DNA of 64,000 nucleotides, from contig JABISL010000050.1 in assembly GCA_018700055.1 (NCBI GenBank), positions 99,946-163,945 of the forward strand. Direction: 5' to 3'. The notes under the pieces are model-generated. The model searched no databases. It was given only the letters and a program-made list of their open reading frames with translations, and was not told the DNA's origin. Position 1 is the stretch's first letter. Every line of letters starts with the position of its first letter. Positions 40,243 through 64,000 of the stretch are shown here, piece after piece. Position numbers and translations under genes: made by a program. This stretch comes from a bacterium (lineage in GTDB: Bacteria; Margulisbacteria; Marinamargulisbacteria; UBA817; JABISL01).

Positions 40243-40298
40243 ACCCCTGCGCCTCATCAAGAGCGGCGCATCAGTGGGTGTGGGGATGTGTGTAAACA

Positions 40299-43783: not shown

Positions 43784-43831
43784 AGGACTTCTAATCCGTA
43801 GGTCAGTGGTTCGAATCTACTCGGGCGCACC
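43784..43831. repeat. attR core (displaced partial tRNA-Arg 3' end)
   Basis: Exact duplicate of 39303..39350. No 5' half of a tRNA is present. Confidence 0.85.
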
Positions 43832-43901
43832 AATTAGATAAGATTCACTTGCTCTACGCCCAAGATGAATCACGGAAACTCGAAATAAATTCGATCCTAT
43901 A

Positions 43902-44606
43902 TTAAGCCGAAGGGGTTCTTTTTTCGTTTGAAAGAGCTAATGTTTGCAGAACTCTTAAGTACTCATCGGGCATATAAGATGACCCGTCACCGGCAGAACA
44001 CGCCTCATTGTCATATAGAAATGGTACATCAAAGTGTTTTGACCAATCCAATACCATTTTCGACGCCCGGTGTCTCTCTTTTCCATTACCAACAATCAAT
44101 GTCTGGCCGTCCTTCTGATGGTCATAGTCCTTCAATGGCATTAGTCGATCTGTAGTAAAAATAAGCATGTTTTCTTGGTCTTGATCTTTAACAATATCAG
44201 CTGGATTCAGCAGAATGCCATTATAGTCTTGCTCTACAGGAACCTCCCTTTGTACCCGATGCCCGATAAGTTTGTCGTTAGAATCAAAAACAGGTGTGCC
44301 AAATCCCCCTAAGTTGGCATGTGCGGGGACAAACATTGATACCATCTGTACGTCTCCCTGAGAAGGAATCCCTTCTAAAAGGTCTAAGACCTTCTCTTCA
44401 TTGAAAAGGTCCCAATTAGATTGATTTCCTGTAAGCAGTTGATGCGTTGTAAAATTCCCTCGTTCACTACTGAGGAAGGCATTCAAATCGGCCAATTCTT
44501 GAATTTTTTGGTGTGATGTATAGTCAAAGTCCATGATAACTCTACGGTCATCTAGGCTTACGATAAGGTAATCGTGAAAGGCCTCACCTTTTTCATTTAA
44601 GGACAT
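43902..44606 (-). CDS. C-terminal fragment carrying the His/Asp part of a transglutaminase-like cysteine-protease core; probably the downstream half of the preceding gene, split by a frameshift
   Basis: AFHDYLIVSLDDRRVIMDFDYT resembles the TGase-like H..(G)W..FDPT segment. 10-nt out-of-frame overlap with the upstream ORF at an A6 run. Confidence 0.5.
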   Translation of the reverse strand: MSLNEKGEAFHDYLIVSLDDRRVIMDFDYTSHQKIQELADLNAFLSSERGNFTTHQLLTGNQSNWDLFNEEKVLDLLEGIPSQGDVQMVSMFVPAHANLGGFGTPVFDSNDKLIGHRVQREVPVEQDYNGILLNPADIVKDQDQENMLIFTTDRLMPLKDYDHQKDGQTLIVGNGKERHRASKMVLDWSKHFDVPFLYDNEACSAGDGSSYMPDEYLRVLQTLALSNEKRTPSA

Positions 44607-47600: not shown

Positions 47601-47995
47601 CGATACCCGCCTTCTATGGCCTTAACTGCGAACGGTACATTATCTCGCGTAATCACCAGGGATATTTCAGGCCAATACTCAGGGTGTTGAGTAATCACTT
47701 TCATCCAAAAATCCCGATCTTCCCGAAGAGGGCTCTTTATCATGGTTCGCCATTTTATGTCTTTAGATATAACTGCTAAGGCAAGGTCCTCATTACTCCT
47801 AAGTCTATTAGAAGCGAGAAAGAAAGAGTGGGGGTCTTTCTGAATTGCAGCCAGAACACACTCATACCTATCCCTATCGCTGTCTGGTAGCGGGGTTCTG
47901 TGCGATAATTCCTTACAGCCTGGTTGATGAACGGGTTCTCCACGGACTTGAGTCGCGGCATATGTTGTTGCTGCTAATGTTATTAAACGAATCAC
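44597..47995 (-). CDS. Large secreted protein (1,132 aa) with degenerate P-loop (GAPGLGKD), internal ~45-aa tandem repeat, and C-terminal TGase-like Cys motif (GVCRHQ) truncated by the stop
   Basis: Signal peptide. P-loop-like motif. Repeats (LDNLNQMEEKA..RRYD..PG). The TGase-like catalytic Cys motif lies ~8 aa before the stop. Confidence 0.6.
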   Translation of the reverse strand: MIRLITLAATTYAATQVRGEPVHQPGCKELSHRTPLPDSDRDRYECVLAAIQKDPHSFFLASNRLRSNEDLALAVISKDIKWRTMIKSPLREDRDFWMKVITQHPEYWPEISLVITRDNVPFAVKAIEGGYRDLSKFSQELLDNKEVAEAINQHADFTDVIKVINHNQKSYSFHMTIPINVVNALIKHIPCEKWSPSFTEQVMKHTPFVSREDVMANESFKLSDLLSFEFTFIETNPDQFLPQFLRDLGSKNIQRITPSSLYKQHTEETGQDLDTQQTLYGTTLPTVLIIPTDDINSGHNDLLQDRRWLGRKISDHVKIIVVGHYNDLTKDVQNRIDSDYIDEYSLQYQNKPSSPKTDELGADQLRYKQLSRITTVQALELDIITLEQKSKHNVSQNELVVVQSDGELNAVSSTDKPPHRYLLTRLPDEVYQKHSTKESDVVIYQYLSDFGKNIDRQLSQQGIHNEDTQKIEEYLKDQVIRIPTKPKLDIVANFKKHMGKWKLQYRDNWYQVKGIQTHAPTHKSSTPTHLNIVSPELLKQDYFNDSSLYMDNDIAREVFDALSEFATNDPQWLILEGAPGLGKDALTKHFLKMLGQNADNIHVEEITSAPDQPLLEQIVDTHEQHPGKNIVFQISEINLISPAQLNEIFHFIQGKNIKIIGTQNAQSQISNRFKLNEQTFSTVHLTSPTGKRDRTEYMKGLIDWASAKYEVPLKWAVVVFADLYIDENIQDVNNPPTPRQLILFAKKLGQKIQEEGLERAEKSAHHLLNAVFFRHRKTIQLKPVKFEREAIPATPGNGLPTPLSLDNLNQMEEKAEMEEQVAASRRYDSLPGNVPPTPPQAPLSPLGNVNPIKEKIQTERKAAVARREGSFLTLSNLNQMEEKAAAARRYDLIPGEATPKRNWTGTKALFLEYAADLMVKMSQIPERVTTPNTISATLAPGETLLVPSLMGSNQATMSLYNEAGYALQCPPNECEQMFDRKERVIFNAKSQSLTVDVTFDDPLPLYSELRSTPLFKQEGQRNLDILNEELIDLNDILKRFIHAKLVPANYTKESLLIALNILIQDGVSQTDMLAGIFTYFDGFMEMDSPADQKTGNLLYDSLYFQKGVCRHQAELGRIIFSALGFETEKRCP

Positions 47996-49123: not shown

Positions 49124-52100
49124 ATGTGCACGATAATTAGCATGAACAAACAAATAAGCCCATTTATCGTATTAATGATGATCATTGGAATTTTCCTATT
49201 AAATCCAACAGCGACATTTGCAGGGTTTTCTAAAACTAACGCGAAAACTGCGTTGATGGCACAGTCTAAACAAGTCATATCATTACGCTATACATCTAAT
49301 AGTAAGACCCCTTCCTTTGTAAAAGGAAAATTTGCCTTTTCTCGTTTTCGAACTAAACAAAGTGTGGCGAAAGCCTTTATGGGATCTACATTGCCCAAGG
49401 CTTTGGGTTTAAAAAATGTGCGGTCTAGAAACTTTAAGCAAATCCGACAAATTCGTGATGCTCATAAACAACGTACTATTGTTCGGTTAAAACAAGACTA
49501 CGAAGGCATTCCTATTTTTGCCAGTGACGTCGCTGTACATATTTCAGATCAAAATGAAGTACTACTAACATCAGGACAGTTTCATGACATTCGATTGAAG
49601 ACTACCCGCCCCAAGATTTCAGGTCTTGATGCAACGAATATTAGTAACGGCTTGATCGGTAAATCCGGTAAGTCCGATCCTGCAACACTAGAAATATATA
49701 CGATTAATGGGAGTTCCCAATTAGTATGGCATGTCGTCACCAAGATCTCAGACCCCGTTGAAGAATGGCACTATTTAATTAATGCAGAAACGGGTAAGCG
49801 CGTTATCTTTTATAACAATATTCAAGACACCAAGCATCGCAAGACGCATGACGCCAATCATGGCTCATCCTTACCCGGAACATTGATCCTAGATGAAGAT
49901 CAAGGGACCTCCACTGATAACGAAATCAATACCGCTCATGATCATATGGGAACCACCTATGACTACTTTAAGGATACCTTTGATAGAGATAGTTATGATG
50001 ATAACGGGGCTATATTATCAACAACCGTTCATTATGGATCCAACTATGTAAATGCCTATTGGAATGGATCTCAATTAGTATTTGGGGATGGGAGTGGGAA
50101 TGTAGGTCCCCTCGGGAACGCGCTAGATATCGTCGCTCATGAATTGGGCCATGCGGTAACCTCACGAACAGGGAATATGACTTATTACAGTCAACCAGGG
50201 GCACTCAACGAATCCATGAGTGATTTTTGGGGGGCTATGGTGGATAGAGATGACTGGAATATGGGTGAAGATGCTTGGAGTCCGAATGACCCAAGTATAG
50301 CGCTGCGATATTTCGAAGACCCTACTCTAGGAAATCAGCCTGCTCATATGGATAATTACTATACCGGAACTGGTGATAACCAAGGTGTTCATATTAATAG
50401 TGGCATCCTAAACAAAGCGGCCTACTTAGTTGCTACCGCTATTACCAGAGAGAAAGCCGAAACAATCTACTACAGAGCGTTAACCACTTATTTCACTCAG
50501 AGCACTAATTTTTTGCAGGCCCGAACAGCACTCGAACAATCCGCAATCGATCTGTATGGGGATAACAGTTCCGAGTTACAGGCTGTGACGACTGCATTCG
50601 AAGCGGTAGGCATCATTCCCCCACCACCCCCAGCAGGTGATTTTGAAGGGATTTATTTTTCAGATCCTTATTCAACGCCTCACCCTTATACCGATAATAC
50701 AACGTACACGAAAACATACACTCACCCTGGCGCAGCGGCGATGAAGGTAGTGTTTACGAATACCAATGTTGAGGCAAACTATGACTTCATCCGAATAAAA
50801 AATGCGGATGGTCAGACAATCTATACCTATGATGGCAATTTAGGAGACTTTACCACCGGGCCTGTGAGTGGCGACACCATTACCGTTGAATTTATAACCG
50901 ATTATAGCGTTACCGGTTATGGATTTGATATCACTGGCTACCATGCGGACCTATCAATAGGAGATATGATTGATCCTGTGACTGACTTCAGTGCCATATC
51001 CACTGGAAATGTCGTCGACTTAACGTGGACTCTTCCAAGTAGCCCTATTTTAAATAATGTAGAGTTGAGACGAAAAACAAACGCAGACCCTGATAATCAT
51101 GGAACGAAGGTATTCGAGCAACTAACGTCAAATTTCACCGACGGCCCTTTAATTGAAAACACTACCTATTATTATGAGATTTATGCAGTGACAACCGCCA
51201 AGGATTATTCTGTCATTACTACTCTGAATGTTACGACGGTAAATAGGCCTCCCGCGGCACCTATAATGGCCATCGTAGAAACAAGTACGCGCAACGTGTC
51301 TCTGTCATGGACGAACCCTGAAGACCTCGACTTTAGAACTGTGGTTATTCGACGCAGTACCACTCACTCGCCTACATCCCTTACTGACGGAACGCATGTC
51401 AGTGAAGTGTTCGGAAACATCATTATCGACCATGGCCTGGACCCTGGTACCGACTATTTTTACAGTATCTTCGCCAAAGATGCGGGAGACCTCTATTCCA
51501 TTCCAGCAACCGCAAGTGTGACTACGCTTGGCATCAAGATCCCTGTACCTGAGAGTCCTGAATCTGAGCCTATTGAAATCGGCCAGATAAAACTCAATGG
51601 CGTAGACTTCACTGGTCAATCAAATGTCATCTCTACATTACCGAAAATCGAGTTTGATTTAAACTATCCTATAGATACAGCAATTGACGTCACCGTGCGT
51701 GTAAGAATTATGAAAGAGTCGTCACAAACACAGGCGCGGGCCTTTATGATTCAATCTACAAGCCCCCAAAAAATCACTCTAGATTTGAATGAGAACCACG
51801 GACTCGAGTTTAGTACCACGGCTCTAAATGACGCCTTGAAACCGAATACGGCCTATTATCTTGAAATCGATGTTGAGGACACCACTGGTATCCAACTAAC
51901 CTTCAGAACCAGCGCCTTTCAAACAGCAGCAGATATATTATCCGTAACCAATTTGTTAAATGGTCCCAATCCGTTTAACCCAAGTGCGGAATCTACAACC
52001 ATTCAATTCGAACTGGCCAAACAAGCCGATATATCTCTCTACATCTACAGCCTTAGTGGCCAACGGTTATGGACCAAAGAGATCTCTCAAGCAAACACCA

Positions 52101-52243
52101 TAATTGGAATGAATACGATCGATTGGAATGGAAAAGACCAAAGTGGACAGTATGCACCGAACGGAATGGTTGTTCTTTACTTCATCGCCAAAAATGAGAC
52201 CAAGACGATCAAACGAAAACTTAAAATAGGGGTCTTACGATGA
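49124..52243 (+). CDS. Secreted M4 (thermolysin-family) zinc metalloprotease with FN3/Ig-like repeats and a type-A T9SS-style C-terminal sorting domain
   Basis: HEXXH (VAHELGHAV) plus third-ligand box (NESMSDFWG). The C-terminus (NGPNPFNPSAESTTIQF..ISLYIYSLSGQ..TIDWNGKDQSGQYAPNGMVVLYFIA..KRKLKIGVLR) matches the Por-secretion CTD consensus. Confidence 0.8.
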   Translation: MCTIISMNKQISPFIVLMMIIGIFLLNPTATFAGFSKTNAKTALMAQSKQVISLRYTSNSKTPSFVKGKFAFSRFRTKQSVAKAFMGSTLPKALGLKNVRSRNFKQIRQIRDAHKQRTIVRLKQDYEGIPIFASDVAVHISDQNEVLLTSGQFHDIRLKTTRPKISGLDATNISNGLIGKSGKSDPATLEIYTINGSSQLVWHVVTKISDPVEEWHYLINAETGKRVIFYNNIQDTKHRKTHDANHGSSLPGTLILDEDQGTSTDNEINTAHDHMGTTYDYFKDTFDRDSYDDNGAILSTTVHYGSNYVNAYWNGSQLVFGDGSGNVGPLGNALDIVAHELGHAVTSRTGNMTYYSQPGALNESMSDFWGAMVDRDDWNMGEDAWSPNDPSIALRYFEDPTLGNQPAHMDNYYTGTGDNQGVHINSGILNKAAYLVATAITREKAETIYYRALTTYFTQSTNFLQARTALEQSAIDLYGDNSSELQAVTTAFEAVGIIPPPPPAGDFEGIYFSDPYSTPHPYTDNTTYTKTYTHPGAAAMKVVFTNTNVEANYDFIRIKNADGQTIYTYDGNLGDFTTGPVSGDTITVEFITDYSVTGYGFDITGYHADLSIGDMIDPVTDFSAISTGNVVDLTWTLPSSPILNNVELRRKTNADPDNHGTKVFEQLTSNFTDGPLIENTTYYYEIYAVTTAKDYSVITTLNVTTVNRPPAAPIMAIVETSTRNVSLSWTNPEDLDFRTVVIRRSTTHSPTSLTDGTHVSEVFGNIIIDHGLDPGTDYFYSIFAKDAGDLYSIPATASVTTLGIKIPVPESPESEPIEIGQIKLNGVDFTGQSNVISTLPKIEFDLNYPIDTAIDVTVRVRIMKESSQTQARAFMIQSTSPQKITLDLNENHGLEFSTTALNDALKPNTAYYLEIDVEDTTGIQLTFRTSAFQTAADILSVTNLLNGPNPFNPSAESTTIQFELAKQADISLYIYSLSGQRLWTKEISQANTIIGMNTIDWNGKDQSGQYAPNGMVVLYFIAKNETKTIKRKLKIGVLR

Positions 52244-53151
52244 GATATTATAAGCCTCTACTAGCCGCAATCCTGATCCTAAGTACCATCATCGCACCTG
52301 TATCAGCTGAGTCTAATGCGGCTGCGTTTCTAGATAAAAGCTCAACTGCCAGAGCCGCAAGTCTCGGTATGGCGTATGTAGCCATTGCAAATGACAATGC
52401 CTCAATCTATCTAAATCCAGCCGGTCTCAGCAATTACAAAGGAAAGTTCGGTTTGCATGCCATGGTCTTCGAGTCCATAGAAACAACCTACAGTTCTGTA
52501 GAATACATCCAGGATTTTGTGTTGGGTTCTAAACTAGGAATTGGGTATATCGGGGCTCGAATTGACGGGGCCATGCTCACCAGTTATGACGATTCTTCTA
52601 ACCAATATGTCGATACCGGCGAGTCTTTTGGTTATACCGGAGACGCCCTCCATCTAACGCTAAGCAAACAACTATTGAAAAAACTCCATGTCGGTGTAAC
52701 CGCTAAGGCAATCAGAGAAACTCTATTTAACAGTGAAGCCTTTGGGGTAGGTGCCGATGTCGGTGTGTTGTACATTCACCCCAAAAGCACTCTGCAAGTA
52801 GGAGCAACCCTACGAAACGCGATTGCACCTCAATTAAAATGGGATACCGGCACAACCATTTCGGCACCCCAAACCTTAGCAGTAGGGGCAAGTTACCGAC
52901 TGCTTAAAGACCAACTTCTAGTCAGTGCGGAACTCCAAAAACAAAATGATTTAGACCCTACACTCCACATCGGATCAGAGTATTTTATCAGTCCTTCTCT
53001 ACCGATTCGAGCAGGTATTAACGATAAAGATATCTCCCTAGGCGTTGGTGTAATAGTAGATGCCTTGTTATTCGATTATGCACTACTCATTCCAAATGAT
53101 GGCGATATCGTCGGAAACGAATCTAGGTTCTCAATTGGACTTAATCTATAG
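52240..53151 (+). CDS. FadL/PorV-like outer-membrane beta-barrel protein (303 aa), translationally coupled to the protease gene
   Basis: Signal peptide. N-terminal FadL-type motif (ARAASLGMAYVAIANDNASIYLNPAGLS). ATGA overlap with the upstream stop. Confidence 0.45.
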   Translation: MRYYKPLLAAILILSTIIAPVSAESNAAAFLDKSSTARAASLGMAYVAIANDNASIYLNPAGLSNYKGKFGLHAMVFESIETTYSSVEYIQDFVLGSKLGIGYIGARIDGAMLTSYDDSSNQYVDTGESFGYTGDALHLTLSKQLLKKLHVGVTAKAIRETLFNSEAFGVGADVGVLYIHPKSTLQVGATLRNAIAPQLKWDTGTTISAPQTLAVGASYRLLKDQLLVSAELQKQNDLDPTLHIGSEYFISPSLPIRAGINDKDISLGVGVIVDALLFDYALLIPNDGDIVGNESRFSIGLNL

Positions 53152-53164: not shown

Positions 53165-56100
53165 CTACTGATACCCCGCTCTGTTACGTCCACCAAGAGC
53201 GGCTGAGCCAGGTCGCACCATCTTCAACTTAGAGGGATCTACACTTTGTAGATCCACAAACTGTGTATTATGTTGAGCGGCTTGCTGCTGCTGAGCAAAT
53301 TGCTTTGTGTAAAACTGATCAGAAGAAGGTGTCTGGGCATGTCCTTTTACTCCTCCCAATGTATTAGGGGCATGAAAGGTCTGTCCCGTTTGCGCCGCTC
53401 GCAAATCAGCTGCTGTTCGTTTTGCATCATCTATTGATACACCTGATCTGCCAGGAGCTGATCCGAGAGTATTAAGGCGTCGAGTTGCGCTCATGGCCGC
53501 ATCACCTTGTTGATTTGCACCAAGTACACTTCCTGCCTGTTTTACACTTATCTTAGATGGACGCGTAGCATTAGGATTACTCAAAGAGTTATTGGGTAAT
53601 CCCCCCTCAGATTGGGAGTTCATCATTCCTTGGTTATTGGAATGATTCACTACAGGTGTTTTCGTTGGGATCTGTCGAGGTGTCGTCTGAGGAGACGGTT
53701 GCGAGGACGCTGACTGACTACTCGCCTCTGGAATAACCACCGGGGCGGGTACCGTTGGTACAGCACCTGGTGACTGGCCATTACTCACCCGTTTAAGATA
53801 GTCCACTTGAGCCTTCATATAACCTTTCGCCCATCCATCACTTTTGTCTGAGTTGCCACCTCTTCTTTCAAGGGTATTGGTATAGCTATTATGTAACAAA
53901 TAGATCGGGAGCGGCTCCAGTGGGATATCGTACTCATCCCCTTTGTAGCTTGTGTTTGACGGGTTCGGTTTCATGTCCCTAACCTCTAGTCCCACATAGT
54001 TGCCGCCCAATTCCTCATTCTTGTTAACCTCAACCAGGGCATACTGCCTAAAATTTTCTCGTTGTCCTTTCTTAGTAAGCGAATATGTAATGGCAGTCAT
54101 TCTTTTTTTATTAATGTTGAGCTTTATGTTCACCGTTAACGTTCGGCTTTCATCTCTGTTATGGAGTCCCGATACATTTCCATCGAGGCCATTAGCTTTT
54201 AAATAGGCGCGTTGATTATCGATGGCCTGAATTGATTCGTTGCCCCAATCCGTTAACCAAGGTGCCCCTGTCGCCATGTCTGATTGATTGAGACGTCCCG
54301 CAAAAAGTAGAATTCGTTGCCACGTGGCTTCGTGATTATCATATTCTGTTCTTAGTGCAGAGGCCACTTTCCATCCAGGCACATTTTCTTCTTTCGCTTG
54401 ATAGGCTTTCTTATACTCATTTTCTGCTGTTTGTTTTGCTGTGCTAGCAGCATTAAAAATATTCTCTGGGTTTTTTTCGCCTTTTTTTCGCGATTGTCCC
54501 CGGTTATTGTCTTCTAGGTTTCTACCCACATTATCATTATAAGCTTTGTGTACCTCTTTAGCTTCCTCAAATTTACGGTTCGCACTCATCATTGTCGCGT
54601 GTGCTTGCTTGTAGTTGGCAACAACGTTGTTATGGGCTCTTTCCTTCTCTGAATCAACTTGCGGTCGTCCTCCTATACTCTTAATCCAGTCGCTCCACTC
54701 GAAGGGCTTGCCTATGGCTGAAGGGTCATCCGATTTGAGAATGCATCGCTCTTGGATGTCGATCAGTGATAGTCCTTCTGGAAGCGTCTCTTGATCAATC
54801 AATGAACTGGCTTCTCGTGGCGATAATAAGACCATTTTGATTGGGTTTCCGCCATTTTTTTTATCCTCTCGTTTGTCCATTAGTAAATATCGAGGTGTGG
54901 CTACGATAGCATCACTCTCGGCTAAATCTGCGAATGACTTGGAAACAGCAAAGTCGTTTAATTCTTCGAATCTAAAAGCGCTACCCCCTATTTGGGATAA
55001 TCGTTGGTGCCCAAATACATTTTTGGAATGACCATTCAGCCCCAATATACTTATTTGTGCATTTCGCACGTTCACTACTTTTCCCCCGGTTTTGGCAGTA
55101 ATCGGTACCATAGGTCCAAACAGGCTGTCTTGGGATAAGGGCCTCTCTGCGTGTGGAACGCCCTCTATAGACCTCGGTGAGTCGCCAAAGATGTCTAGAC
55201 TTTGTTGGTTCTGCACCTGGGTTTCCATTTGCTCCTGAGTTTGACCCATCGCTTCCTGTTGCGTCTCAACTTGAGTTACGGCTTCTTGGGTTGTATCCAG
55301 TTCCAACTCTTGCTCCTGCCCCTCTTGTTCCTGGACCTGCTCTTGAGTCATCTTAGGGGTCCCGTCATCTTTCATGCGCTCATTCAGCAATCCTTGCTCT
55401 TTTAATTTTTTCTCTCGATAATTCAAAGCTTTGTTCATTTCAGTCATAAACCTTTGTTGGTCTGATTGGGTTACGTTTAGCGCTTTAATTTTTTCTGTGT
55501 ATTTGGCTTTTAGCTTGGTCATCAGGCTCGCATAGGTTGGGGGTTGATTAACCGTTTGATAGGCCTCAAAGGCATCCTCTGAGTAGGTCGAAAATTGAGA
55601 TTGCTCGTTAGAATAATCGCCCTCTACGTTAGTGGCTCTAGACTCTCCAGCCACCTTCAAAAATAAGGCTTCTAAAACCGGTTCCGTCTCCCGCATCATA
55701 TGGTTGGTTCGCAGTACCTTCTGACTATTGATGGCTGCTGCAGCAATAAGGTTTCCTCTTGTCAGACCTTTTCCTGCTAAGCCTTGCAGTGTCTTAAGGG
55801 TACTATTGGGCACTATAAACTCATACATGGCATGAGTCTGCCCTCTTTTTTTGTCCATACGGCCGGCTCGGCCCATCATTTGATTAAGCTCATCCTGTGA
55901 AAGGGTCTCCATATCGCAGTTGGCCAATAGTCGATGATTCATTTGAAGCACTTCTGGCGCACTAAATCCGCGAGTCGCCTTGGGGCCACCAAAGATAATA
56001 TAGTTTTGTTTTTTGGGATCAAAATCGGGGTCTTTTCTCCCGAGTAGTGTTTTGTAGTCAATGACCTCATAGGTCACCTGCCCATTATTGCCCCTTTTAG

Positions 56101-59100
56101 GGATCACTACCTTTTTAATGGCCTCGCCGCCTTCGGGAGGGACATAACGAATCACAACGCCATCTAACTTGATTCTATTATTTGTCCCATTTAGCAACTG
56201 CAAAAACGCCTTGGCCATGTCTTCGTCACTCTTCGCAAATGACTTGCGAGCATCTAAGACCACTTGGATTGGATGGTCTGTCCCAAAGCTCTCACTCACT
56301 CGTGTTGCCATATTATTGAATAATGTTTGGCTATCATAGTTGTCGTCTACAGCGGTAAGCGTCTCCGTTCTATTATTATTATTTGTCCTTAACAGATCCA
56401 TTCGCTCAGCGGCACTAGTATCTTCCGCTACTTCACGATCATATTCTTGAAGAAGATCTCCAGTGGCAGTCAGTCCATAATCAGCCTTCACCATATGTCG
56501 CATATCATTCGGAGTGGTTACAAACACCCGTTTGGATCGAGGGATACCTGTCTTGATGATGGTCTCCCAAACCACACGGAGGGCCGCGGGGTCTTTATTT
56601 AATTCGGGCAATATTTCTTGTTTCATCGCCGGAGTCATCATCATCTTGATGATGTCGGAGGTCTCAGAAGCGGTAGCCTCGATCTGCTCATTAATTTGCT
56701 CTGCAATGGATACGATCATAGGATTAGGGTGATTAAGATAGGCAACATATTCCTCTGCCATATAACCAATAAAGTGCTTATATTGGGCATCGGTAGTAAT
56801 TCCTTTCGCCATTAGTGAATTGAACGTAGCAAAGGCTACATCCTCAATCTCACTATATTGATTGGCTGTTTTTTCACCCCCATCCAGGCCGGTAGCATAG
56901 ATCTGGTCTCTTACCCCATAATGTCGATCCACTTCTTGTCCCAATTGCGAGGTTAATGACTTGATGGATGCGATAGCAAAAAGCACTTGTTCTTTGATTT
57001 GTTTTAATTGGGGATTGTTTGGTCCCATCACATCTTTGAATAGTGTCTCTTCAATGAACGACGTTTCATTGTCAGATAACTTTCTACCTCTACCTTGAGC
57101 GGTTACTAAGGTTCCTGTCATGAGAGCCGTGAATAAGTCTTTTAAGGTAACATTATTAAGTGAGCCTACGTCTTGTTTCATTAACCCATCGACAGTGGTG
57201 TTGGCCAATCCACTATGAATAGTCGGCAGCATATCGTTAAAAAGAGCCTCCTGTAATTGGGTCACGGCTTGCGGGTTCCCTGGCATTAGTCGATATCCAC
57301 TGCCAGGTGTTGCTATGATTCTGTGCTGTTTGGCTCGGGCAGTAAATTGATCAACTAACCCACTAAGAATAGAGGCTTGGTCCTGATTTAAATTGGATGG
57401 CTCTCTACTCTGAGCATCATTATATGTTTCTCTTAAGGTCTGAGTTGCGGCATTCACTGCATCCGCTTCATCGGTGATTAGTGTGGTATTTTTTAGTGCC
57501 ACCATAATCTCTCCAAGTAACTTGGCCGCCTCTGTTCCAGCGCCAGTTTTATTCTTTTCATGAAGGATAATATTGTTGAGATTATTTAGTGATTTGAGTG
57601 CCGTTGGCGCCATGGCATACGAGAATCCAGCATCTCTTACAAACAGACTATGCAGGTGCCTGATATAGGGTAACGATCTTTTGGCGTCTGATTTGGATGG
57701 CGGAGCGATGCTTATGACCTCCAAATGTCTAACGAGACCCTTCGTATTTTCATTGATTTCTTGTGCGGTCACATCGGCTAGCGGGCTAATTAGAATGCTC
57801 CGTTTATGAGCAGCAAGAAGTGCTGGTACCGCTTGGGAGGATTTTCCGGACCCCGTCCCTGCAATCCCAATATCTACTTGAGAAGAGCTGCTCGAGGGGT
57901 CGGTGAGTAAATATTGAAAGTCATCCACCGCGCCAGCGACTAAACGAATCACTAAGGCCGCTTGTTCTGGTGTTCCTCGGAACCCATTGGCATGTTCCAT
58001 CCCCATAAACGACAAAAGTAGCTTCTGCATAACGGGGTCATCGCCGCGTTCCAACAATCGATCTAGTCGATATCCTCGTGGCCTATCCAAGTACTGATTG
58101 AGTTCGGTGTGCGCTTCGTTAGATACTACATTCTGAAAAACCGATGGCGGTGCAATAAGCCGGTCTACTTGTGATATACACTGCTTCCTATGATTGTGGT
58201 CCGTATCTACAATGAGGTATCGCATAGCAAGGTTTACAACCCGTTGGCGATCTTGATCATGCAACACTAGTGTAGGATCAAGTTCCCAAAGCCCTTCTTC
58301 CTCTCTGAGGACAATTTTGAGAATATCATCGATGGACCACTCTTTTTTCTGGGCATTGCTGGTCACAGCCGCTACACTCAGAATCGCCTTCATGTCTGCT
58401 TCTATTCGTCCTTTTTCTTCCGTTTCTAAAGCCCCTTGCTTAGTGAGTTCTGACTTCATCCCTTTTAATTGGGCCTGACTATAGTTAGTCTGGCTAGTCC
58501 ATCCAGGAATTCCAGTGAGCGCTGTTGCCACCGTCCTAGTGTACCCTTCTGCCCATGTGAGTAGGCCTTCATTCCGAGGTGCGTCCGTTCCTGTATTCTG
58601 TTTTAGCTCTGATGTTTTTCCAGCAATATAACGGTTTACATCATTTTGATATTTAATATCCGGGTCTATTGGATCTGACGTATAGGGCATGATCTCAAGT
58701 TGGCTATTATTGGATAGCCATTCACCCATCTGAACCAGCATTTTTAAATCCAGCTTAGTACTGGCTGAGTCACGTAGGTCCTCTTTCCCATAATTTGCTA
58801 CAACCGCTACAAAATGATTCTTCGCTGCATCAACAATTTGTTGGCTTGGTAGTGCCTGGGTATAGTTACGGTGTAATAGTTGTGAAAAAAACTGGAGCAT
58901 CATTTTGGAATGATCTATGCCGGAACCAATATTTGATAAGGACATTACCCATTCTTCCTCTGTCTCGTTTAAGGAACGAGTAGCCCAATTAGCCATCAAT
59001 TGGTCGGTATGCCCTTTCCAATCTGGAGTACCGCCATTATCAATAACCTGACCTAATTCTTTGTTAATTGTTCGCCATTTACTTAGGCGGGATCCTTGAT

Positions 59101-62100
59101 TAGTTGTGTATCCCTGGATAGTTTTTAGGTTTTCTAATTTGCTCGGATCCAATCCCAAACAGTCTCCAAACTCAACCAAGACACCTAGTCCTTGAGCCTT
59201 GGTAGTTGCCCACTGGTGGTCTCTTAGCGCTTGGTACATATCTCCGTTTTCACCATTTTTTTCGTCCTTAAGGACTGTATTACACACCATGTAAATCGCG
59301 AAGCCATTCAGTGCTTTGAGCTGTTTCTCGGAATTATATAACGCCCCTTGAGATAGCGCTTTAAAAACGATCATGGCCACCATCGCTTGGTATTGAACCG
59401 GTTTAGATCCACTTGTTGTAGCTAGATTATTAATCCAATCGATCTCCTCTGTCGTCAACTTGCGATTGGTAGGAGTGCTCGATAGACACTTGAGGGCCTC
59501 TGTTATTCCGCCATCTTCGGCCAATATCTGGGCTACTTCCCATTGCTGGACGCGTGAACTACTCTGAAGTCGATCCACTTGAGTCGCACTGCCATTATAA
59601 GTCCATAACTTGGGTGGGTTCCCTTTAACATTGGGAATCAGAGTCCGTTTTGCATGGCTAACAGTATTCTCCAAAGAAATCATGGCTGGACCATCCTTAA
59701 GATGGATTTCCGTTACGCTCTCATTAACTTGCGCCCCTGTTTTGGGATCTTGAGTGACTCTGAGTAATTGCGTTCCGTTTACCAAAAATCGTTCCTTGAG
59801 ACGTGGTAGCAAAACCTCCGTTGGCGTGTTTCCAGGAGGCTGCCATACTTGAATATTCGACAGCTCACGTTCTATAGTACGCATCACTTTTATGGCTAGT
59901 GCGTCAGGGTTCGTGGTTTGCAAGACAGCGCCATCTTCGGCACGTCTTATTACCCCATCGTCTGAAATAGCGTAATCGACCTGTGCATTCGGCCCGGCCT
60001 GTTTATCCATTAAAATTATTCTAGATCCAATATTGGGATCCACTACCTTCCAACAATGATGGGTATCTAGAATGGATTGGGGAATGCCTGGAGGATGGTC
60101 TTTTGGGGCCATAAATTGTATATCACCAAAAGAAGCATAGGTTCGTTGGATAACTAGTTCACCATCGGCAGCGTTTAGGGGACTATAAAAAAGAGTGTCG
60201 TTATCCTTGGCTCTATATAAGTTAAATCTAGCCGCATCCGTATTGGGTTTGGCATATCCACGTGCCAAAGGAATTTTTTTATTGCCATACAATGCCTTAT
60301 AGACGGCGCTATTAGTCACTTCCAGTGGCGGACGAGTGAGTGGTCTACCATCCACTAATAGTCCATCGTAGATATTCCAAACTAAGCTCCCTTTATTTGC
60401 CGAAAAGACCCCGGATCCAAGATTGGTCCATTGATTGCTACTTGAGGTATTCACTGGTAATTCAATGCCGTTAATGGCCGCTAGCGGAAGTGCTTTATTT
60501 AGCAAGTCCGTATTCGTAAGTATCTTCGCTTCCACAATTTTACTCAGCATCGGCTCTAATCTAGTGAAGGCCATTGTCGCTTGAGCCGCCAAGTGCGCTA
60601 GTTCTTTGGGTAGACTACCTGTTTTCGGATCTATTAATTCATCTCTACTGGCTTCTATGTTTTCTTTGGCTTTTAGGATCTGCATCGTGATGTCTACTCG
60701 TTCTCCGACAGTGGTTTCTTGATTTACTAACTGATGCGACAGATCCATGAGTCTATAGGTTCCTTGCAAGAACTGAGCCTTCCCCCCACTTTTCCTAGCC
60801 AATGTTGTCATGACTTGATTCCATTCTGCGTTAAATTTTCCTAGCGCATTTAGCGCAATATGTCGGACATTACCATTGGCAGACTGCATTCCCTTCTGGC
60901 AAGCCAGTTTGGCAAAATACAAGGTCTGCAGTGCCTTAGAATAGTTACCCGCCATATTGATGGGTATCGCATTGTCACATACCTCTACTAAAGCTGACAT
61001 TGTGTAGGGGGTAAGCTCATTTGAATTGCCCAAGATGTCGTTTTCGGTCATTTTTTGAAAAAACATCTCTGCGATATCTAGTTTCTTCATATCTTGCGGG
61101 TTGGCTTTGGCCCACGACACTAACTCATGCAGAACTAATCCCTTGTTGGTTGTATTAAAAAAGGCGATCTTGGCGGACTGAACGCCCAATCGTTTGAGAA
61201 AAATTTCCATCGAGTGACTATCACTAAAATGGCCTAGTTGCATTAAGATCTCGGGGTTCGCAGTTAGTGTGTCTTCATCATATTTAACTCTGTACGCCCC
61301 CTCTTTTTGAGTCACTCTTATATTATTTGGGATGTAGGCTTTATTCCCTACTTGGATGCGAACGCCCTTCTCAAAGTTGGTGACTATGGAGAGGTCTCTC
61401 GCCATGGGAACTAGCTGAACGTCCTTCTTATAATTATCGCTCCATTTTATAAAAGGATCTGAGAGAAGTATTGCCGCTGTTGTCATCTGGCTCATTTTTG
61501 TTCCATATAATAACAACCCATCAACTCTATTAACCTTTTGTTGTGTAATAGCTTCTATTTCTGCAAAGCTTGCGGCTTTATTTAGCGCCTTTGTATTAGT
61601 GCGAAGTTGATCTATATCTTTTTGGGAATTGGCTTTGATCGGACCCACAATGTCATTATAGGAAGGAATTCTGGCTGCCCCCTCCATTGCCACTCTTATC
61701 CGCTCACCGGAAAAGGATGTTCTGGGAAGTTGGTCCAGTTGGGCAAGTATGTGCGCTATCCCTAGAATCTCAACCTTATGTTGGATACAAAAGGCTAGGG
61801 TTAGTAGGTTTTGTTGGTACGTTACTGTGTTTTTTAACGCACTATCCGATCCGTTAAATTCCGCTCTATAGTTGAAATGTATTTGGGTTATGGTTTGTTG
61901 AAGCTGTTGAAATTCGGACGTTAGGTCCATTTCAACCCATTCTGATTGCAATCCAGACGCCTCTTCTATTAGTGTTTCTGTCAGTCGAGTTATCGCTCCC
62001 ATGGCGGCTTGAAGCTGATCTGGTTTCTGAGCTGACTTTTTTAAGTGTTGGGTCATGGATGACATATAAGCTTTTATATCCGCCTTATGTGCCGCAACAT

Positions 62101-64000
62101 GTTGATCATATTGTTTAATCTCTTTTGAATAATCTGGGCCAAGTTTTTCATACGCTGCAATCGCGGCTTCTCCTTCTCTTCTGACCTTTATGAGTTCTTG
62201 ATTGACCGCTTTATGTTTAGGGGTGCCTTGCTTGCACCCGTCTAACCTTTTCGATAATAGATCCGCCCTTTCATGAGATTTTTTAATCTCGGCCTTTAGC
62301 GTTCTAGCCGTATCATTATAGGTTCTAATCAGCCCTTTAAGGTTTTGCATATCCTGTCCGTAAGAAATCCTGATCTGAGGCTCTACGTTTTGTTCTGGGC
62401 GACGAACTGTCTTGGATCTAATCACAGTTGTTGAATAAAGAGTCGATGCCGGACGGGGCCTAGCACTAGTAATATTTTGTGCCTGAGTGGCTTTGCCTGG
62501 CGCCACTGTTATTTGTAATGCGGTTGCCTGATACGTAGATTGATAAGTGCTTAGTTTGGCTGTTGGATATTGATCTAATTGGCGCTTGGCCTTCTGTTCC
62601 GCCTTGGTTAGCGGCGAAGAGACACGCTTCGATTTTTTTACCCCAACTACTTGGGTTGCACTCTTTATCATATTGAGTCGGTTATTTGCGACGCCTTGTA
62701 GTGCCGGGAGGACGTCCTCTTTTGGTATGTAGTATTCAGCATTAACTCTACGTGAGACATTATGCTTCTCAACAAATTTTCCCTTTTCGCTAAGTCCATT
62801 TAAAGTAGCCCCATCCCCATATTGAGTCTGAATATATTGGGAAAAGGACTCACGAATGCTCAGTCCTTTGGCCAGCTCATGAGGGGTATAAGGTTGCCCG
62901 TTTTTATCTAGAAGGGAGGGCACAATTACTTGGTCAATATCAGCGTTCTTTAGCAACCCATTTAACTCGGCGAGTGGGAGTGTTTTCACCCAACCTTCCA
63001 TCACCCTTACTTGCTCATTAACGACCACCTGTTCAGCCTTCTCATAACTCGTAATGGCTTGATTGATTTGAGCGCTTTGGGTTCGTGCTGCTCCGGCATA
63101 TCTATCATGTTTATCCTTTATAAGTCCCCATTTTCCTTTTCTGTTGGATGAAATCTTAAATGTATTCAAATCCAAAACAGGACTAGTTAACGTATCGAGA
63201 ACCGTTGGTTCTGGCAGGGCCTGATCATGCTTGGTATTTGCAACCTCAGTGATTTTGGTTTTGATCTCATCAAGTTTGGCTTGTTTGAGTTCCGCGAACT
63301 GCTGGCTGTTGGTTTTGAATTCTTGGATAGCGGCTCGTTTATCTTTCAAAAGAACTGAATCTTCCTCATTCTGAGCCGCCAATTCTTGAGCCGTGACGTT
63401 AAGTTGGGCGAGTACATCTTTCATATTGGCTAGACCGTGAATCACACTCTCCCACTGATTTTCACAACCCGTATATGTTGCAAGTGTTTCCTGTAATGCA
63501 TCGAGTTGGTCGGATATCGTTTTTTTGGTTTCTATGGGCACTTGGTTATGCCGAGCCAAAAGATTGTTCTTATAGGTATTAAGTGCATTTACTGTATCGG
63601 CAAGCTCTAGATTAAGCTTGGGGTTTGGTGGAGGAGTTATAAAAGACTCGGCTGTAGTAATCAAGTCATTAAATGCGACAATTTCCCGCTTTATCCTTAT
63701 TTGCACACCCTTATGACCTTGTATTTCTTGTTCAAAATGGCTTAATCCGTCTTCTGCCGACTGAATATCGGCATCCGAGATGGTAGGGGCGGGGGCGTTA
63801 TTGATTGCATTCATCTGATCAGATAATTGAGTGAGTAATGTGGATTTTTCTTGGAATCGATTATGGGCAGCTTTTTGCTCATCTACAGTCTGAGTAGCCT
63901 TTGCATGATCTGAGAGAAATGTTGCCACTCTCGATTCATAATCGCTCTTTTTCGTTAAGAATACTTTGGCTTCGTCCGCATTGTTAAATGTCTGCCATGT
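53165..64000 (-). CDS. Giant multidomain protein (>3,587 aa; N-terminus lies beyond the window) with coiled-coil N-terminal region, embedded SF2 helicase-like ATPase core, Gln/Glu-rich tract and Ser/Pro/Gln-rich C-terminal tail
   Basis: The frame stays open from 63928 to the window edge (the ORF-track start is a GTG, not a true N-terminus). Walker A GIAGTGSGKSS, DEAD box LITDEADAVN, motif VI QMMGRAGRMD. Confidence 0.7.
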   Translation of the reverse strand, partial: TWQTFNNADEAKVFLTKKSDYESRVATFLSDHAKATQTVDEQKAAHNRFQEKSTLLTQLSDQMNAINNAPAPTISDADIQSAEDGLSHFEQEIQGHKGVQIRIKREIVAFNDLITTAESFITPPPNPKLNLELADTVNALNTYKNNLLARHNQVPIETKKTISDQLDALQETLATYTGCENQWESVIHGLANMKDVLAQLNVTAQELAAQNEEDSVLLKDKRAAIQEFKTNSQQFAELKQAKLDEIKTKITEVANTKHDQALPEPTVLDTLTSPVLDLNTFKISSNRKGKWGLIKDKHDRYAGAARTQSAQINQAITSYEKAEQVVVNEQVRVMEGWVKTLPLAELNGLLKNADIDQVIVPSLLDKNGQPYTPHELAKGLSIRESFSQYIQTQYGDGATLNGLSEKGKFVEKHNVSRRVNAEYYIPKEDVLPALQGVANNRLNMIKSATQVVGVKKSKRVSSPLTKAEQKAKRQLDQYPTAKLSTYQSTYQATALQITVAPGKATQAQNITSARPRPASTLYSTTVIRSKTVRRPEQNVEPQIRISYGQDMQNLKGLIRTYNDTARTLKAEIKKSHERADLLSKRLDGCKQGTPKHKAVNQELIKVRREGEAAIAAYEKLGPDYSKEIKQYDQHVAAHKADIKAYMSSMTQHLKKSAQKPDQLQAAMGAITRLTETLIEEASGLQSEWVEMDLTSEFQQLQQTITQIHFNYRAEFNGSDSALKNTVTYQQNLLTLAFCIQHKVEILGIAHILAQLDQLPRTSFSGERIRVAMEGAARIPSYNDIVGPIKANSQKDIDQLRTNTKALNKAASFAEIEAITQQKVNRVDGLLLYGTKMSQMTTAAILLSDPFIKWSDNYKKDVQLVPMARDLSIVTNFEKGVRIQVGNKAYIPNNIRVTQKEGAYRVKYDEDTLTANPEILMQLGHFSDSHSMEIFLKRLGVQSAKIAFFNTTNKGLVLHELVSWAKANPQDMKKLDIAEMFFQKMTENDILGNSNELTPYTMSALVEVCDNAIPINMAGNYSKALQTLYFAKLACQKGMQSANGNVRHIALNALGKFNAEWNQVMTTLARKSGGKAQFLQGTYRLMDLSHQLVNQETTVGERVDITMQILKAKENIEASRDELIDPKTGSLPKELAHLAAQATMAFTRLEPMLSKIVEAKILTNTDLLNKALPLAAINGIELPVNTSSSNQWTNLGSGVFSANKGSLVWNIYDGLLVDGRPLTRPPLEVTNSAVYKALYGNKKIPLARGYAKPNTDAARFNLYRAKDNDTLFYSPLNAADGELVIQRTYASFGDIQFMAPKDHPPGIPQSILDTHHCWKVVDPNIGSRIILMDKQAGPNAQVDYAISDDGVIRRAEDGAVLQTTNPDALAIKVMRTIERELSNIQVWQPPGNTPTEVLLPRLKERFLVNGTQLLRVTQDPKTGAQVNESVTEIHLKDGPAMISLENTVSHAKRTLIPNVKGNPPKLWTYNGSATQVDRLQSSSRVQQWEVAQILAEDGGITEALKCLSSTPTNRKLTTEEIDWINNLATTSGSKPVQYQAMVAMIVFKALSQGALYNSEKQLKALNGFAIYMVCNTVLKDEKNGENGDMYQALRDHQWATTKAQGLGVLVEFGDCLGLDPSKLENLKTIQGYTTNQGSRLSKWRTINKELGQVIDNGGTPDWKGHTDQLMANWATRSLNETEEEWVMSLSNIGSGIDHSKMMLQFFSQLLHRNYTQALPSQQIVDAAKNHFVAVVANYGKEDLRDSASTKLDLKMLVQMGEWLSNNSQLEIMPYTSDPIDPDIKYQNDVNRYIAGKTSELKQNTGTDAPRNEGLLTWAEGYTRTVATALTGIPGWTSQTNYSQAQLKGMKSELTKQGALETEEKGRIEADMKAILSVAAVTSNAQKKEWSIDDILKIVLREEEGLWELDPTLVLHDQDRQRVVNLAMRYLIVDTDHNHRKQCISQVDRLIAPPSVFQNVVSNEAHTELNQYLDRPRGYRLDRLLERGDDPVMQKLLLSFMGMEHANGFRGTPEQAALVIRLVAGAVDDFQYLLTDPSSSSSQVDIGIAGTGSGKSSQAVPALLAAHKRSILISPLADVTAQEINENTKGLVRHLEVISIAPPSKSDAKRSLPYIRHLHSLFVRDAGFSYAMAPTALKSLNNLNNIILHEKNKTGAGTEAAKLLGEIMVALKNTTLITDEADAVNAATQTLRETYNDAQSREPSNLNQDQASILSGLVDQFTARAKQHRIIATPGSGYRLMPGNPQAVTQLQEALFNDMLPTIHSGLANTTVDGLMKQDVGSLNNVTLKDLFTALMTGTLVTAQGRGRKLSDNETSFIEETLFKDVMGPNNPQLKQIKEQVLFAIASIKSLTSQLGQEVDRHYGVRDQIYATGLDGGEKTANQYSEIEDVAFATFNSLMAKGITTDAQYKHFIGYMAEEYVAYLNHPNPMIVSIAEQINEQIEATASETSDIIKMMMTPAMKQEILPELNKDPAALRVVWETIIKTGIPRSKRVFVTTPNDMRHMVKADYGLTATGDLLQEYDREVAEDTSAAERMDLLRTNNNNRTETLTAVDDNYDSQTLFNNMATRVSESFGTDHPIQVVLDARKSFAKSDEDMAKAFLQLLNGTNNRIKLDGVVIRYVPPEGGEAIKKVVIPKRGNNGQVTYEVIDYKTLLGRKDPDFDPKKQNYIIFGGPKATRGFSAPEVLQMNHRLLANCDMETLSQDELNQMMGRAGRMDKKRGQTHAMYEFIVPNSTLKTLQGLAGKGLTRGNLIAAAAINSQKVLRTNHMMRETEPVLEALFLKVAGESRATNVEGDYSNEQSQFSTYSEDAFEAYQTVNQPPTYASLMTKLKAKYTEKIKALNVTQSDQQRFMTEMNKALNYREKKLKEQGLLNERMKDDGTPKMTQEQVQEQEGQEQELELDTTQEAVTQVETQQEAMGQTQEQMETQVQNQQSLDIFGDSPRSIEGVPHAERPLSQDSLFGPMVPITAKTGGKVVNVRNAQISILGLNGHSKNVFGHQRLSQIGGSAFRFEELNDFAVSKSFADLAESDAIVATPRYLLMDKREDKKNGGNPIKMVLLSPREASSLIDQETLPEGLSLIDIQERCILKSDDPSAIGKPFEWSDWIKSIGGRPQVDSEKERAHNNVVANYKQAHATMMSANRKFEEAKEVHKAYNDNVGRNLEDNNRGQSRKKGEKNPENIFNAASTAKQTAENEYKKAYQAKEENVPGWKVASALRTEYDNHEATWQRILLFAGRLNQSDMATGAPWLTDWGNESIQAIDNQRAYLKANGLDGNVSGLHNRDESRTLTVNIKLNINKKRMTAITYSLTKKGQRENFRQYALVEVNKNEELGGNYVGLEVRDMKPNPSNTSYKGDEYDIPLEPLPIYLLHNSYTNTLERRGGNSDKSDGWAKGYMKAQVDYLKRVSNGQSPGAVPTVPAPVVIPEASSQSASSQPSPQTTPRQIPTKTPVVNHSNNQGMMNSQSEGGLPNNSLSNPNATRPSKISVKQAGSVLGANQQGDAAMSATRRLNTLGSAPGRSGVSIDDAKRTAADLRAAQTGQTFHAPNTLGGVKGHAQTPSSDQFYTKQFAQQQQAAQHNTQFVDLQSVDPSKLKMVRPGSAALGGRNRAGYQ

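Follow-up and report, generated by a model that had tools for sequence, protein, structure and literature searches.

What kind of protein is encoded by a reading frame that fills the last 10.8 kb of a bacterial DNA stretch and runs off its edge, and do the helicase-like motifs buried in it belong to a real motor? These questions are raised by a 64,000-nucleotide stretch of contig JABISL010000050.1, which was analysed as a whole (hereafter, the window) and in which a giant open reading frame (ORF) occupies positions 53165–64000 of the minus strand. The analyses described below led us to regard it as probably the 3' part of a native chromosomal gene for a soluble orphan protein of 6,042 amino acids (aa), in which one superfamily 2 (SF2) motor of the DEAD type is carried on a giant helical scaffold.

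The frame comprises 3,611 sense codons in the window, ends in a single terminal stop (53165–53167), and is open to the window edge. The initial annotation had described an uninterrupted minus-strand frame of ~10.8 kb running past the window, and this description was borne out, with no internal stop in the 3,611 codons. At this base composition, a stop is expected every ~17 codons, and the probability of an accidental open frame of 3,611 codons is about 1e-95. The GC fractions of the giant gene at the first, second, and third codon positions are 0.533, 0.386, and 0.414, respectively. The distance of its relative synonymous codon usage from that of the pooled housekeeping genes (uvrA, uvrD, lon, clpX, addAB, and other housekeeping genes of the window) is 0.075, and the housekeeping genes themselves range from 0.047 to 0.117. 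The codon usage of the integrase, GNAT, and M4 peptidase genes deviates more than that of the giant gene. Because both the codon-position GC and the synonymous usage match those of the housekeeping genes of the window, we conclude that the giant ORF is a genuine native coding sequence.

The protein had been described as longer than 3,587 aa and cut by the window edge. It is indeed giant and truncated, and its size was underestimated. Extension of the contig to the true N-terminus, which the initial annotation had proposed, was achieved with a 228,702-bp contig of JGI metagenome sample 3300072015; the complete gene called there has a product of 6,042 aa. This source contig was located by an exact-protein match of the neighbouring 303-aa ORF, and the full protein (P0003) was taken from the 90% cluster of the single match of the exhaustive search described below. 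The C-terminal 3,611 codons and the stop in the window (53165..64000; all features of the gene given below are likewise on the minus strand) are identical to residues 2432–6042 of this protein, and the first 2,431 codons lie outside the window. An exact DNA search of representative genomes gave no match. Two partial copies from one metagenome-assembled genome (MAG) are deposited at NCBI, MBT5856499.1 (4,765 aa, one mismatch) and MBT5855096.1 (1,510 aa), both annotated as 'hypothetical protein, partial [bacterium]'. The 3' end of the gene was also found on three short ENA contigs of the same strain as the window, two of which are 100% identical and the third of which differs in its last ~130 bases only. 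All 32 differences in the latter contig (L001), a stop codon among them, fall at positions ~3945–4076 (window 54310–54441). They look like a chimeric or low-quality assembly end and not like real variation, and such a contig end accounts for all of the differences. Besides the JGI sample, the ENA entries ERZ23491495, ERZ4201011, and ERZ27237622 carry the organism.

The candidate motor lies at 55721..58003 (fragment residues ~2000–2760, counted from the window edge; full-length residues ~4431–5190). The initial annotation had placed its motifs at ~2,300–2,900 aa; they actually span ~2,047–2,714 of the fragment. Motif I (Walker A), AGTGSGKS, was found at fragment residues 2047–2054 (full-length 4478–4485; 57839..57862), with its GTGSGKS string starting at residue 2048 (57839–57859), and is the sole [AG]xxxxGK[ST] of the full-length protein (6,042 residues). 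Motif II (Walker B), DEAD, occupies residues 2177–2180 (57461..57472) directly after the hydrophobic strand NTTLIT (NTTLITDEAD, 2171–2180; the TDEADAV string starts at residue 2176, 57455–57475), and is the sole DE[ACISVH][DH] in the protein. The distance from motif I to motif II is 130 residues, a typical SF2 spacing. Motif VI, QMMGRAGR, lies at residues 2707–2714 (full-length 5138–5145; 55859..55882), is followed by MDKKRGQTHAMYEFIV, and is the sole [QH]xxGRxGR in the protein; its GRAGR string starts at residue 2710 (55859–55873). Motifs I and VI were each aligned to the corresponding motifs of DEAD-box proteins, RecQ, and SecA.

Further elements of an SF2 core surround these three motifs. 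A Q-motif-like segment, RGTPEQAALVIRLVAG (residues 2008–2023; 57932..57979), lies ~25 residues upstream of motif I and was aligned by hhalign to the DEAD-box 'TPIQ..AIP..L.G', with a 17-residue insertion relative to DEAD-box proteins. A motif V-like segment, IIFGGPKATRGFSAPEV (residues 2668–2684; 55949..55999), was aligned to the DEAD-box VLVATDVAARGLDI, and hhalign aligned this V-like segment (PKATRGFSAPEV) jointly with motif VI (z 5.9). Motif IV was picked out by eye only. Motifs I, Ia, and II each follow a hydrophobic strand, as read from the sequence, an arrangement seen in RecA-like folds. The catalytic signatures are all intact, namely the Walker A GKS, the Walker B DEAD, and both arginines of motif VI. 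Motifs II and VI are 530 residues apart, compared to ~190 in E. coli DEAD-box proteins, and therefore roughly 300 extra residues would lie between the two lobes and ~55 within lobe 2. The putative inter-lobe region corresponds to residues ~2230–2560 (about 330 residues; 56321..57313).

Three patterns fixed beforehand, [AG]xxGxGK[ST], DE[ACISVH][DH], and [QH]xxGRxGR, each occur exactly once in the 6,042 residues and in the canonical order I, II, VI. Such an ordered chain is expected by chance only 7e-8 times, as estimated with 20,000 composition-preserving shuffles. With a DEAD-box profile built from five E. coli paralogues, hhalign scored 30.0 for the Q-like segment together with motif I (RGTPEQAALV...AGTGSGKS aligned to TPIQ...AQTGTGKT), compared to 13.6±2.7 for shuffled sequences (0/100 reaching the score, z~6), and 27.0 for motifs V–VI (IIFGGPKATRGFSAPEV...QMMGRAGR aligned to VLVATDVAARGLDI...HRIGRTGR), compared to 13.0±2.4 (0/100, z~5.9). 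RecQ and SecA were also aligned to the module at their own motifs I and VI. In an ordered-block test, for which the blocks were chosen solely by their conservation in the reference alignment, SecA and DEAD-box blocks alike gave z values of about 3.6–3.7 (1/2,000 shuffles), and none of the remaining 801-residue stretches of the giant protein scored as high.

Several results have to be set on the other side of the balance. The top and only relevant Pfam match of the module is DEAD, at 18.1 bits (E=0.0024), under the 26-bit cutoff. Helicase_C, SecA_DEAD, SecA_PP_bind, and ResIII gave no Pfam match in a search up to E<=10, and sequence searches of tiles and trimmed segments against NCBIfam, PHROGs, PADLOC, and PDB returned noise only. 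In HMMER searches with the narrow DEAD-box and SecA profiles that we had built, the real sequence came out no better than its shuffles. The inter-lobe region holds two rival candidates for motif III, ALMTGTL at residue 2291 and GLTATGD at ~2510. Structure prediction on the helicase block had also been suggested as a check, and AlphaFold2 run on the module without an alignment gave a predicted local distance difference test (pLDDT) value of 37.8, unusable as support for the fold. The SF2/DEAD-type ATPase core claimed in the initial annotation thus stands as far as the motif set is concerned, which is present beyond chance, and stays under the Pfam cutoff. On balance, the motifs and alignments suggest that the module is very probably an SF2-type P-loop motor, and the fact that all of the catalytic residues are intact argues for a predicted active enzyme.

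The remainder of the protein, as far as can be read from its composition, is laid out as ~3,200 acidic long-helix residues, ~1,200 residues of mixed alpha/beta character, the SF2 module, an acidic linker, a C-terminal region of ~450 residues, and a basic tail of ~200 residues. Residues 1 to ~2,760 of the full protein are rich in helix formers and poor in aromatic residues, with a net charge of about -150. This N-terminal helical region contains a tandem duplication of ~470 residues (368–838 and 832–1311, 37–39% identity, blastp E down to 1e-50). The long alpha-helical, acidic, aromatic-poor region continues into the window as fragment residues 1–~800 (61604..64000), preceded beyond the window edge by ~2,400 residues of like character. 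Single-sequence AlphaFold2 prediction of the first 700 residues in the window gave helices of 44–72 residues with pLDDT of 60–87 in parts, the highest values (up to 87) being at fragment residues 550–640 and low-confidence linkers at 255–540. In NCBIfam, the helical region showed sub-threshold cross-matches to SMC coiled coils. The initial annotation had called the N-terminal part coiled-coil-like, and the composition, the SMC cross-matches, and the predicted long helices make this a fair descriptive term.

One part of the helical region differs between deposited copies. Residues 1–1300, and again those after ~1500, show 100% identity between the NCBI MAG copies and the JGI copy, and one of the MAG copies (P0002) is only ~61% identical to the JGI copy (P0003) over ~200 residues at full-length residues ~1301–1500. 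The segment may be a hypervariable cassette; alternatively, the MAG assembly may have been broken by an additional, diverged tandem unit.

Downstream of the helical region, the middle ~1,190 residues (fragment 800–1990; 58031..61603) have a mixed alpha/beta composition and no recognisable domain; nothing significant was found for them in Pfam, NCBIfam, PHROGs, or PADLOC, nor was a relative found in the PDB. On the C-terminal side of the motor, the acidic Gln/Glu tract QEQEGQEQELE (fragment residue 2890; 55301..55333) lies in an acidic helical linker of ~150 residues with a net charge of -11. It is followed by a globular-looking region of ~450 residues (fragment 2950–3405; 53786..55153), the most aromatic-rich part of the protein, for which no family, PDB, or homologue match was found. 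The protein ends with a low-complexity tail of ~206 residues rich in Ser, Pro, Gln, Asn, and Gly (53168..53785), net basic (+9), predicted from its composition to be disordered, and terminating in ...KLKMVRPGSAALGGRNRAGYQ. Both the QEQEGQEQELE tract and the Ser/Pro/Gln-rich C-terminus had been noted in the initial annotation and are present as claimed. Domain searches on tiles, also proposed there, gave no Pfam, NCBIfam, PHROGs, PADLOC, or PDB match to any part of the protein apart from the ATPase. No second enzymatic domain was found in the Pfam, NCBIfam, PHROGs, and PADLOC scans (the N-terminal 2,431 residues being covered by the Pfam scan), and no adhesin or eukaryote-like domains were detected. 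By a hydropathy heuristic, the protein has no transmembrane helix: 19-residue Kyte–Doolittle averages stay below 1.6 throughout the 6,042 aa and peak at 1.4. A hydrophobic core of a signal peptide is also lacking in the N-terminus, MAIRIAPAPVPLPFGDGPGGGEPKVKK, as judged by the same kind of heuristic and not by a dedicated predictor. RTX motifs, LPxTG motifs, and recognisable sorting domains are likewise absent from the 6,042 aa. The protein is therefore soluble-looking, with no apparent membrane anchor.

An exhaustive HMMER scan with fragment residues 1901–2900, which covered 1.84 billion representatives (of about 15 billion proteins), returned only the protein's own cluster at E<=0.001. The ATPase motor is so divergent that these 1.84 billion representatives hold no detectable relative. 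Word-indexed searches with three sub-regions found no homologue either, a weak negative since that tool never returned the self cluster. One metagenome match, a phage tape-measure-like protein, was rejected, its similarity being coiled-coil noise. To judge from these searches, the giant protein is a lineage-restricted orphan.

We then considered which SF2 motor the module resembles. In SecA, the preprotein-binding domain is inserted after motif II, and a SecA-type motor was tested for this reason; a large insert between motif II and lobe 2 is present in the giant protein. With a profile of ten SecA/SecA2 sequences, hhalign aligned 86 columns at 30% identity from motif I through motifs Ia and Ib (P=0.0024, z=4.3), pairing RDAGFSYA with NEYGFDYL at motif Ib (GF.Y kept), and greedy extension of the alignment was colinear across the whole motor. 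The SecA blocks sought were NDYLAxRD (Ia), GFDYLRD (Ib), DEARTPLIISG, IVDEfTGR, GLHQAiEAKE, ITfQNyFR, and GMTGTA. The score of five SecA-specific blocks was reached by 49/5000 shuffles and by 0/43 natural control windows, and it equals that of a genuine divergent SecA-like protein of Legionella.

The SecA assignment also has its difficulties. The block search and hhalign put the landmarks of the preprotein-binding domain and motif III at different places (2215–2298 and 2358–2516, respectively), and in a position-blind test 7/26 SecA blocks peaked inside the motor (P=0.048), those seven not being colinear. A hidden Markov model (HMM) of SecA built by us gave -1.9 bits, no better than shuffles. 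The membrane segments and nearby secretion genes present in published SecA-like giants were not found here. A match by eye to the start of the SecA scaffold helix was tried and failed. We therefore treat a SecA-type motor as a lead, to be held tentatively, and a DEAD-box-like motor as about as likely.

Giant proteins with an embedded motor of this kind have been reported before. Most giant proteins of Omnitrophota and some of those of Actinobacteriota contain divergent SecA DEAD and preprotein-binding domains without the scaffold and wing (West-Roberts et al. 2023, preprint, 10.1101/2023.11.21.568195), and a SecA DEAD-like architecture cluster (PF07517) is listed among giant proteins (10.64898/2026.06.07.730766). 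Our best guess is that the present protein handles a polymer by means of an ATP-driven motor, which is mounted on a giant scaffold that is soluble and helical. ATP would bind in the cleft between two RecA-like lobes, and its hydrolysis would open and close them; the large inserted region may act as a substrate clamp or specificity domain. By such movements, the motor could grip or translocate an extended polymer, with the giant helical part serving as a scaffold, spacer, or tether. As to the polymer, a polypeptide is our tentative first choice because SecA-type DEAD motors have been reported inside other giant bacterial proteins; RNA or DNA, as for a DEAD-box-like motor, would come next, and something else again seems the least probable of the three.

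The alternative that survives best, possible although on the unlikely side, is that the motor is a DEAD-box-like nucleic-acid-dependent ATPase and that the protein is a cytoplasmic RNA/DNA scaffold, such as an organiser of ribonucleoproteins or a chromosome tether. The Q motif is characteristic of DEAD-box proteins. The best profile alignments of the module are indeed to DEAD-box proteins, with the Q-like F..TPEQ and motif I scoring 30.0–30.6 (z 6–7) and the V–VI block, ATRGF...QMMGRAGR, reaching z 5.9, and DEAD is the sole Pfam match. The lack of a signal peptide and of transmembrane segments and the SMC cross-matches of the acidic helical region would also suit a cytoplasmic scaffold. However, membership in the DEAD-box family itself is not borne out: the core is ~710 residues long, the II–VI spacing is 530 residues compared to about 190, no SAT motif III was found at the expected place, the DEAD-box HMM did not score above shuffles, and Helicase_C gave no match. 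In addition, a bulk as strongly acidic as this one (net charge of about -150 in residues 1 to ~2,760) is atypical of a nucleic-acid-binding scaffold.

A less likely alternative, which is compatible with the preferred reading of a motor on a soluble scaffold, is that the bacterium lives in association with a host or prey and that the protein acts as a secreted effector or at the cell surface, with the basic disordered tail as an export signal; effectors of host-associated bacteria had been mentioned as similar proteins in the initial annotation. Orphan, fast-evolving giant proteins are typical of effectors, and published giant bacterial proteins have mostly been linked to adhesion or predation (10.1101/2023.11.21.568195). 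Consistent with this alternative, the neighbouring genes include one for a DUF4116 protein, a Fic/RhuM gene on an island, and one for an M4 peptidase of secreted type; the last 20 residues of the disordered tail are rich in Arg and Lys; and the ~200-residue segment that is ~61% identical between otherwise identical copies hints at diversifying variation. On the other hand, the protein has no signal peptide, transmembrane segment, RTX, LPxTG, or recognisable sorting domain, nor any adhesin or eukaryote-like domains, and secretion-system genes were not found within 10 kb on either side of the gene.

It is improbable that the helicase-like motifs are relics or chance matches in a non-ATPase fold or in a dead structural pseudo-enzyme. 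This alternative would account for the fact that no curated threshold was passed, that our own HMMER profiles gave no signal, and that structure prediction failed. A chance match had been named in the initial annotation as grounds for refutation; however, the three motifs occur once each, in the right order, with a normal I–II spacing, in a chain expected only 7e-8 times, the flanking motifs were recovered by independent hhalign alignments with z~6, and both the catalytic residues and the hydrophobic strands before motifs I, Ia, and II are in place.

The weakest alternative reads the product as a polyvalent protein from a mobile element, be it conjugative, a phage, or of another kind, as the initial annotation had suggested by likeness. 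It is very improbable and was rejected. The large size and the helicase-type module speak for it, as does the occurrence of an integrase gene, a tRNA gene, and the Fic/RhuM gene within 15 kb. However, the island that holds these genes is closed by perfect 50-bp repeats and excludes the giant gene, the other flank is chromosomal (ThrRS-IF3-L35-L20-PurC), and the codon usage is native. A tblastn search with the ATPase block drew a blank among 50,697 phage records and 72,556 plasmids, and the IMG/VR viral contig collection likewise yielded no relative. A single enzymatic module was found with Pfam, NCBIfam, PHROGs, and PADLOC, and no methylase, nuclease, primase, peptidase, or other module typical of polyvalent proteins was detected.

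The same annotation had also remarked that the gene is not obviously inside an element, and here it was correct, in view of the closed island of 4.5 kb, the chromosomal flanks, and the native codon usage. The island (39274–43834; 4.48 kb, with clean attL/attR) is inserted at a tRNA-Arg(TCT) gene (39274–39350) and is delimited by the tRNA and by a perfect 50-bp direct repeat of the 3' half of tRNA-Arg (39303–39352 = 43785–43834). It contains a gene for a tyrosine integrase (40890–42065), the RhuM/Fic-domain gene (42203–43237), and small ORFs. Its right end is 9.3 kb from the giant gene, and its integrase is the only one nearby. Secretion, conjugation, and phage genes, the latter two of which the initial annotation had named as something to look for in the neighbouring sequence, are absent within 10 kb on either side of the giant gene.

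The interval that separates the giant gene from the island contains a 234-aa ORF, genes for a 1,132-aa DUF4116 protein and for a GNAT protein, and an operon (49124–53151, plus strand) made up of an M4 peptidase gene and the 303-aa ORF. The M4 (thermolysin-type) peptidase has 1,039 aa, with a propeptide, an fn3 domain, and a C-terminal FlgD_ig-like domain; its gene overlaps the 303-aa ORF, which belongs to no family, by 4 bp. The operon is convergent with the giant gene, and 13 bp separate the two stops. The sole recognisable feature of the 1,132-aa protein (44597–47995, minus strand) is the DUF4116 repeat. The DNA of its gene contains three diverged 38-nt repeats at 45345–45589, spaced by 84–123 nt, and the 234-aa ORF, which has no assigned family, overlaps the start of the gene.

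The genes of the window before 39 kb are chromosomal and encode UvrA, DnaB, UvrD, PGI, WecG, DapF, signal peptidase, Lon, ClpX, ClpP, trigger factor, LpxB, a FabZ-LpxA fusion, and AddAB. Upstream of the giant gene, outside the window, the source contig carries genes for ThrRS, IF3, L35, L20, a BFN-domain protein, PurC, MGMT, DUF2461, and an AMP-binding enzyme, as well as three ORFs without assignment. The presence of LpxB and LpxA indicates that the host is a diderm. Among 185,579 species representatives, none has a ClpX more than 60% identical to that of the host, and the best match is an unclassified groundwater MAG; the host is an uncultivated bacterium from a poorly sampled lineage.

Some further observations were made among these chromosomal genes. 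A 419-aa ORF adjoining lpxB (27194–28453, minus strand) encodes a dehydratase domain like that of FabA/FabZ together with domains of the LpxA-type hexapeptide and Acetyltransf_11 families, and appears to be the FabZ-LpxA fusion. In a 277-aa ORF (18261–19094, plus strand), an N-terminal ThiS-like domain is joined to the catalytic domain of a lipoyl/octanoyl ligase (LplA-B_cat), an unusual pairing. Pfam gave no match at E<=1e-5 for three ORFs of 450, 617, and 571 aa among the housekeeping genes (9002–12220 and 4954–6669, plus strand). Since the 571-aa ORF, in its listed form, overlaps the end of dnaB, it probably starts farther downstream.

The giant proteins of bacteria are known to be a blind spot, in that assemblies break and annotation fails, and the few that have been studied suggest roles in adhesion, predation, or symbiosis. 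A buried divergent motor of the DEAD or SecA type is a recurring, unexplained trait of such proteins. Compared to this known theme, the notable features of the present example are the lack of detectable relatives and of a membrane anchor. It is also compact (6,042 aa), complete, soluble-looking, and found in several assemblies (JGI, NCBI, and ENA). If the motor is active, the module of ~800 residues would offer a tractable handle on the role of such motors inside giant proteins. The case also exposes the limits of current tools, as profile libraries and alignment-dependent structure prediction fail and motif logic alone recovers the ATPase. A bolder proposal, which we consider improbable, is that the protein is the founder of a class of soluble giant motor-scaffold proteins, with a SecA-derived or novel SF2 motor, a new insertion of ~300 residues, a scaffold of >3,000 residues, and two globular domains without assignment, in a bacterial lineage that lacks cultured or well-sampled relatives. 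If this were true, the protein would be expected to have an activity unlike that of any characterised SF2 protein, for example self-powered export or unfolding, or that of a mechanochemical tether. The importance of the protein is potential rather than demonstrated.

Among known systems, the DEAD-box RNA helicases (E. coli RhlE, SrmB, DbpA, DeaD, and RhlB) show the same order of elements as the giant protein: Q-like, I (A.TGSGK[ST]), II, V-like (A.RG...), and VI (..GR.GR.G). The spacings from I to II (~130 residues) and from V to VI (~40 residues) are also normal. In contrast, the giant protein has ~300 extra residues between the lobes, ~55 in lobe 2, and no clear SAT motif III, and its module is embedded in 6,042 aa, whereas DEAD-box proteins are stand-alone proteins of 400–650 aa. 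Canonical SecA/SecA2 share with it the large insertion between motif II and lobe 2. However, the PROSITE-type signature around NMAGRGTD is absent from the giant protein, the helical scaffold, wing, and C-terminal linker were not found in it, its alignments to the landmarks of the preprotein-binding domain are contradictory and near chance, and its gene has no genomic link to SecYEG.

A further comparison is provided by a 13,794-bp plasmid of Legionella geestiana (NZ_CP041715.1), a member of a genus of intracellular pathogens. The plasmid consists almost entirely of the gene for one 2,947-aa hypothetical protein, WP_135842960.1, which is 25% identical to residues 98–602 of E. coli SecA (tblastn, E=7e-28). 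Like the giant protein, it is large and bacterial, has no other annotation, and contains a divergent motor, in its case a SecA-like one; the two also score the same on SecA-specific blocks. Unlike the giant protein, it is plasmid-borne and recognisable by BLAST as SecA-like, and no significant direct similarity between the two was detected (best blastp E=0.1).

The giant proteins of Omnitrophota and Actinobacteriota provide a further parallel in architecture, with several differences. Pfam SecA_DEAD (PF07517) and SecA_PP_bind (PF01043) detect the motors of these proteins, which include the Omnitrophota 'Archaeovorin' and Dockerin types, but not that of the present protein. In these giants, transmembrane regions are numerous or signal peptides are present (94% in the catalogue of 2026, 10.64898/2026.06.07.730766), and the genes often lie near type II secretion-like genes; neither transmembrane regions nor a signal peptide are found in the present protein, and no such genes lie near its gene. 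They are 10,000 to >100,000 aa long and carry adhesion and carbohydrate-degrading domains, whereas the present protein has 6,042 aa and is dominated by acidic long helices. A sequence relationship to them could not be shown, and what we describe is a likeness only. This likeness extends to a low-significance similarity of the motor to nucleotide-binding domain 1 of SecA, through motifs Ia and Ib, and to a large insertion in the motor without a detectable SecA scaffold or wing (by Pfam in the present case). The proteins also have in common that they are very large and mostly unannotatable and that each carries a single divergent DEAD motor towards its C-terminal part.

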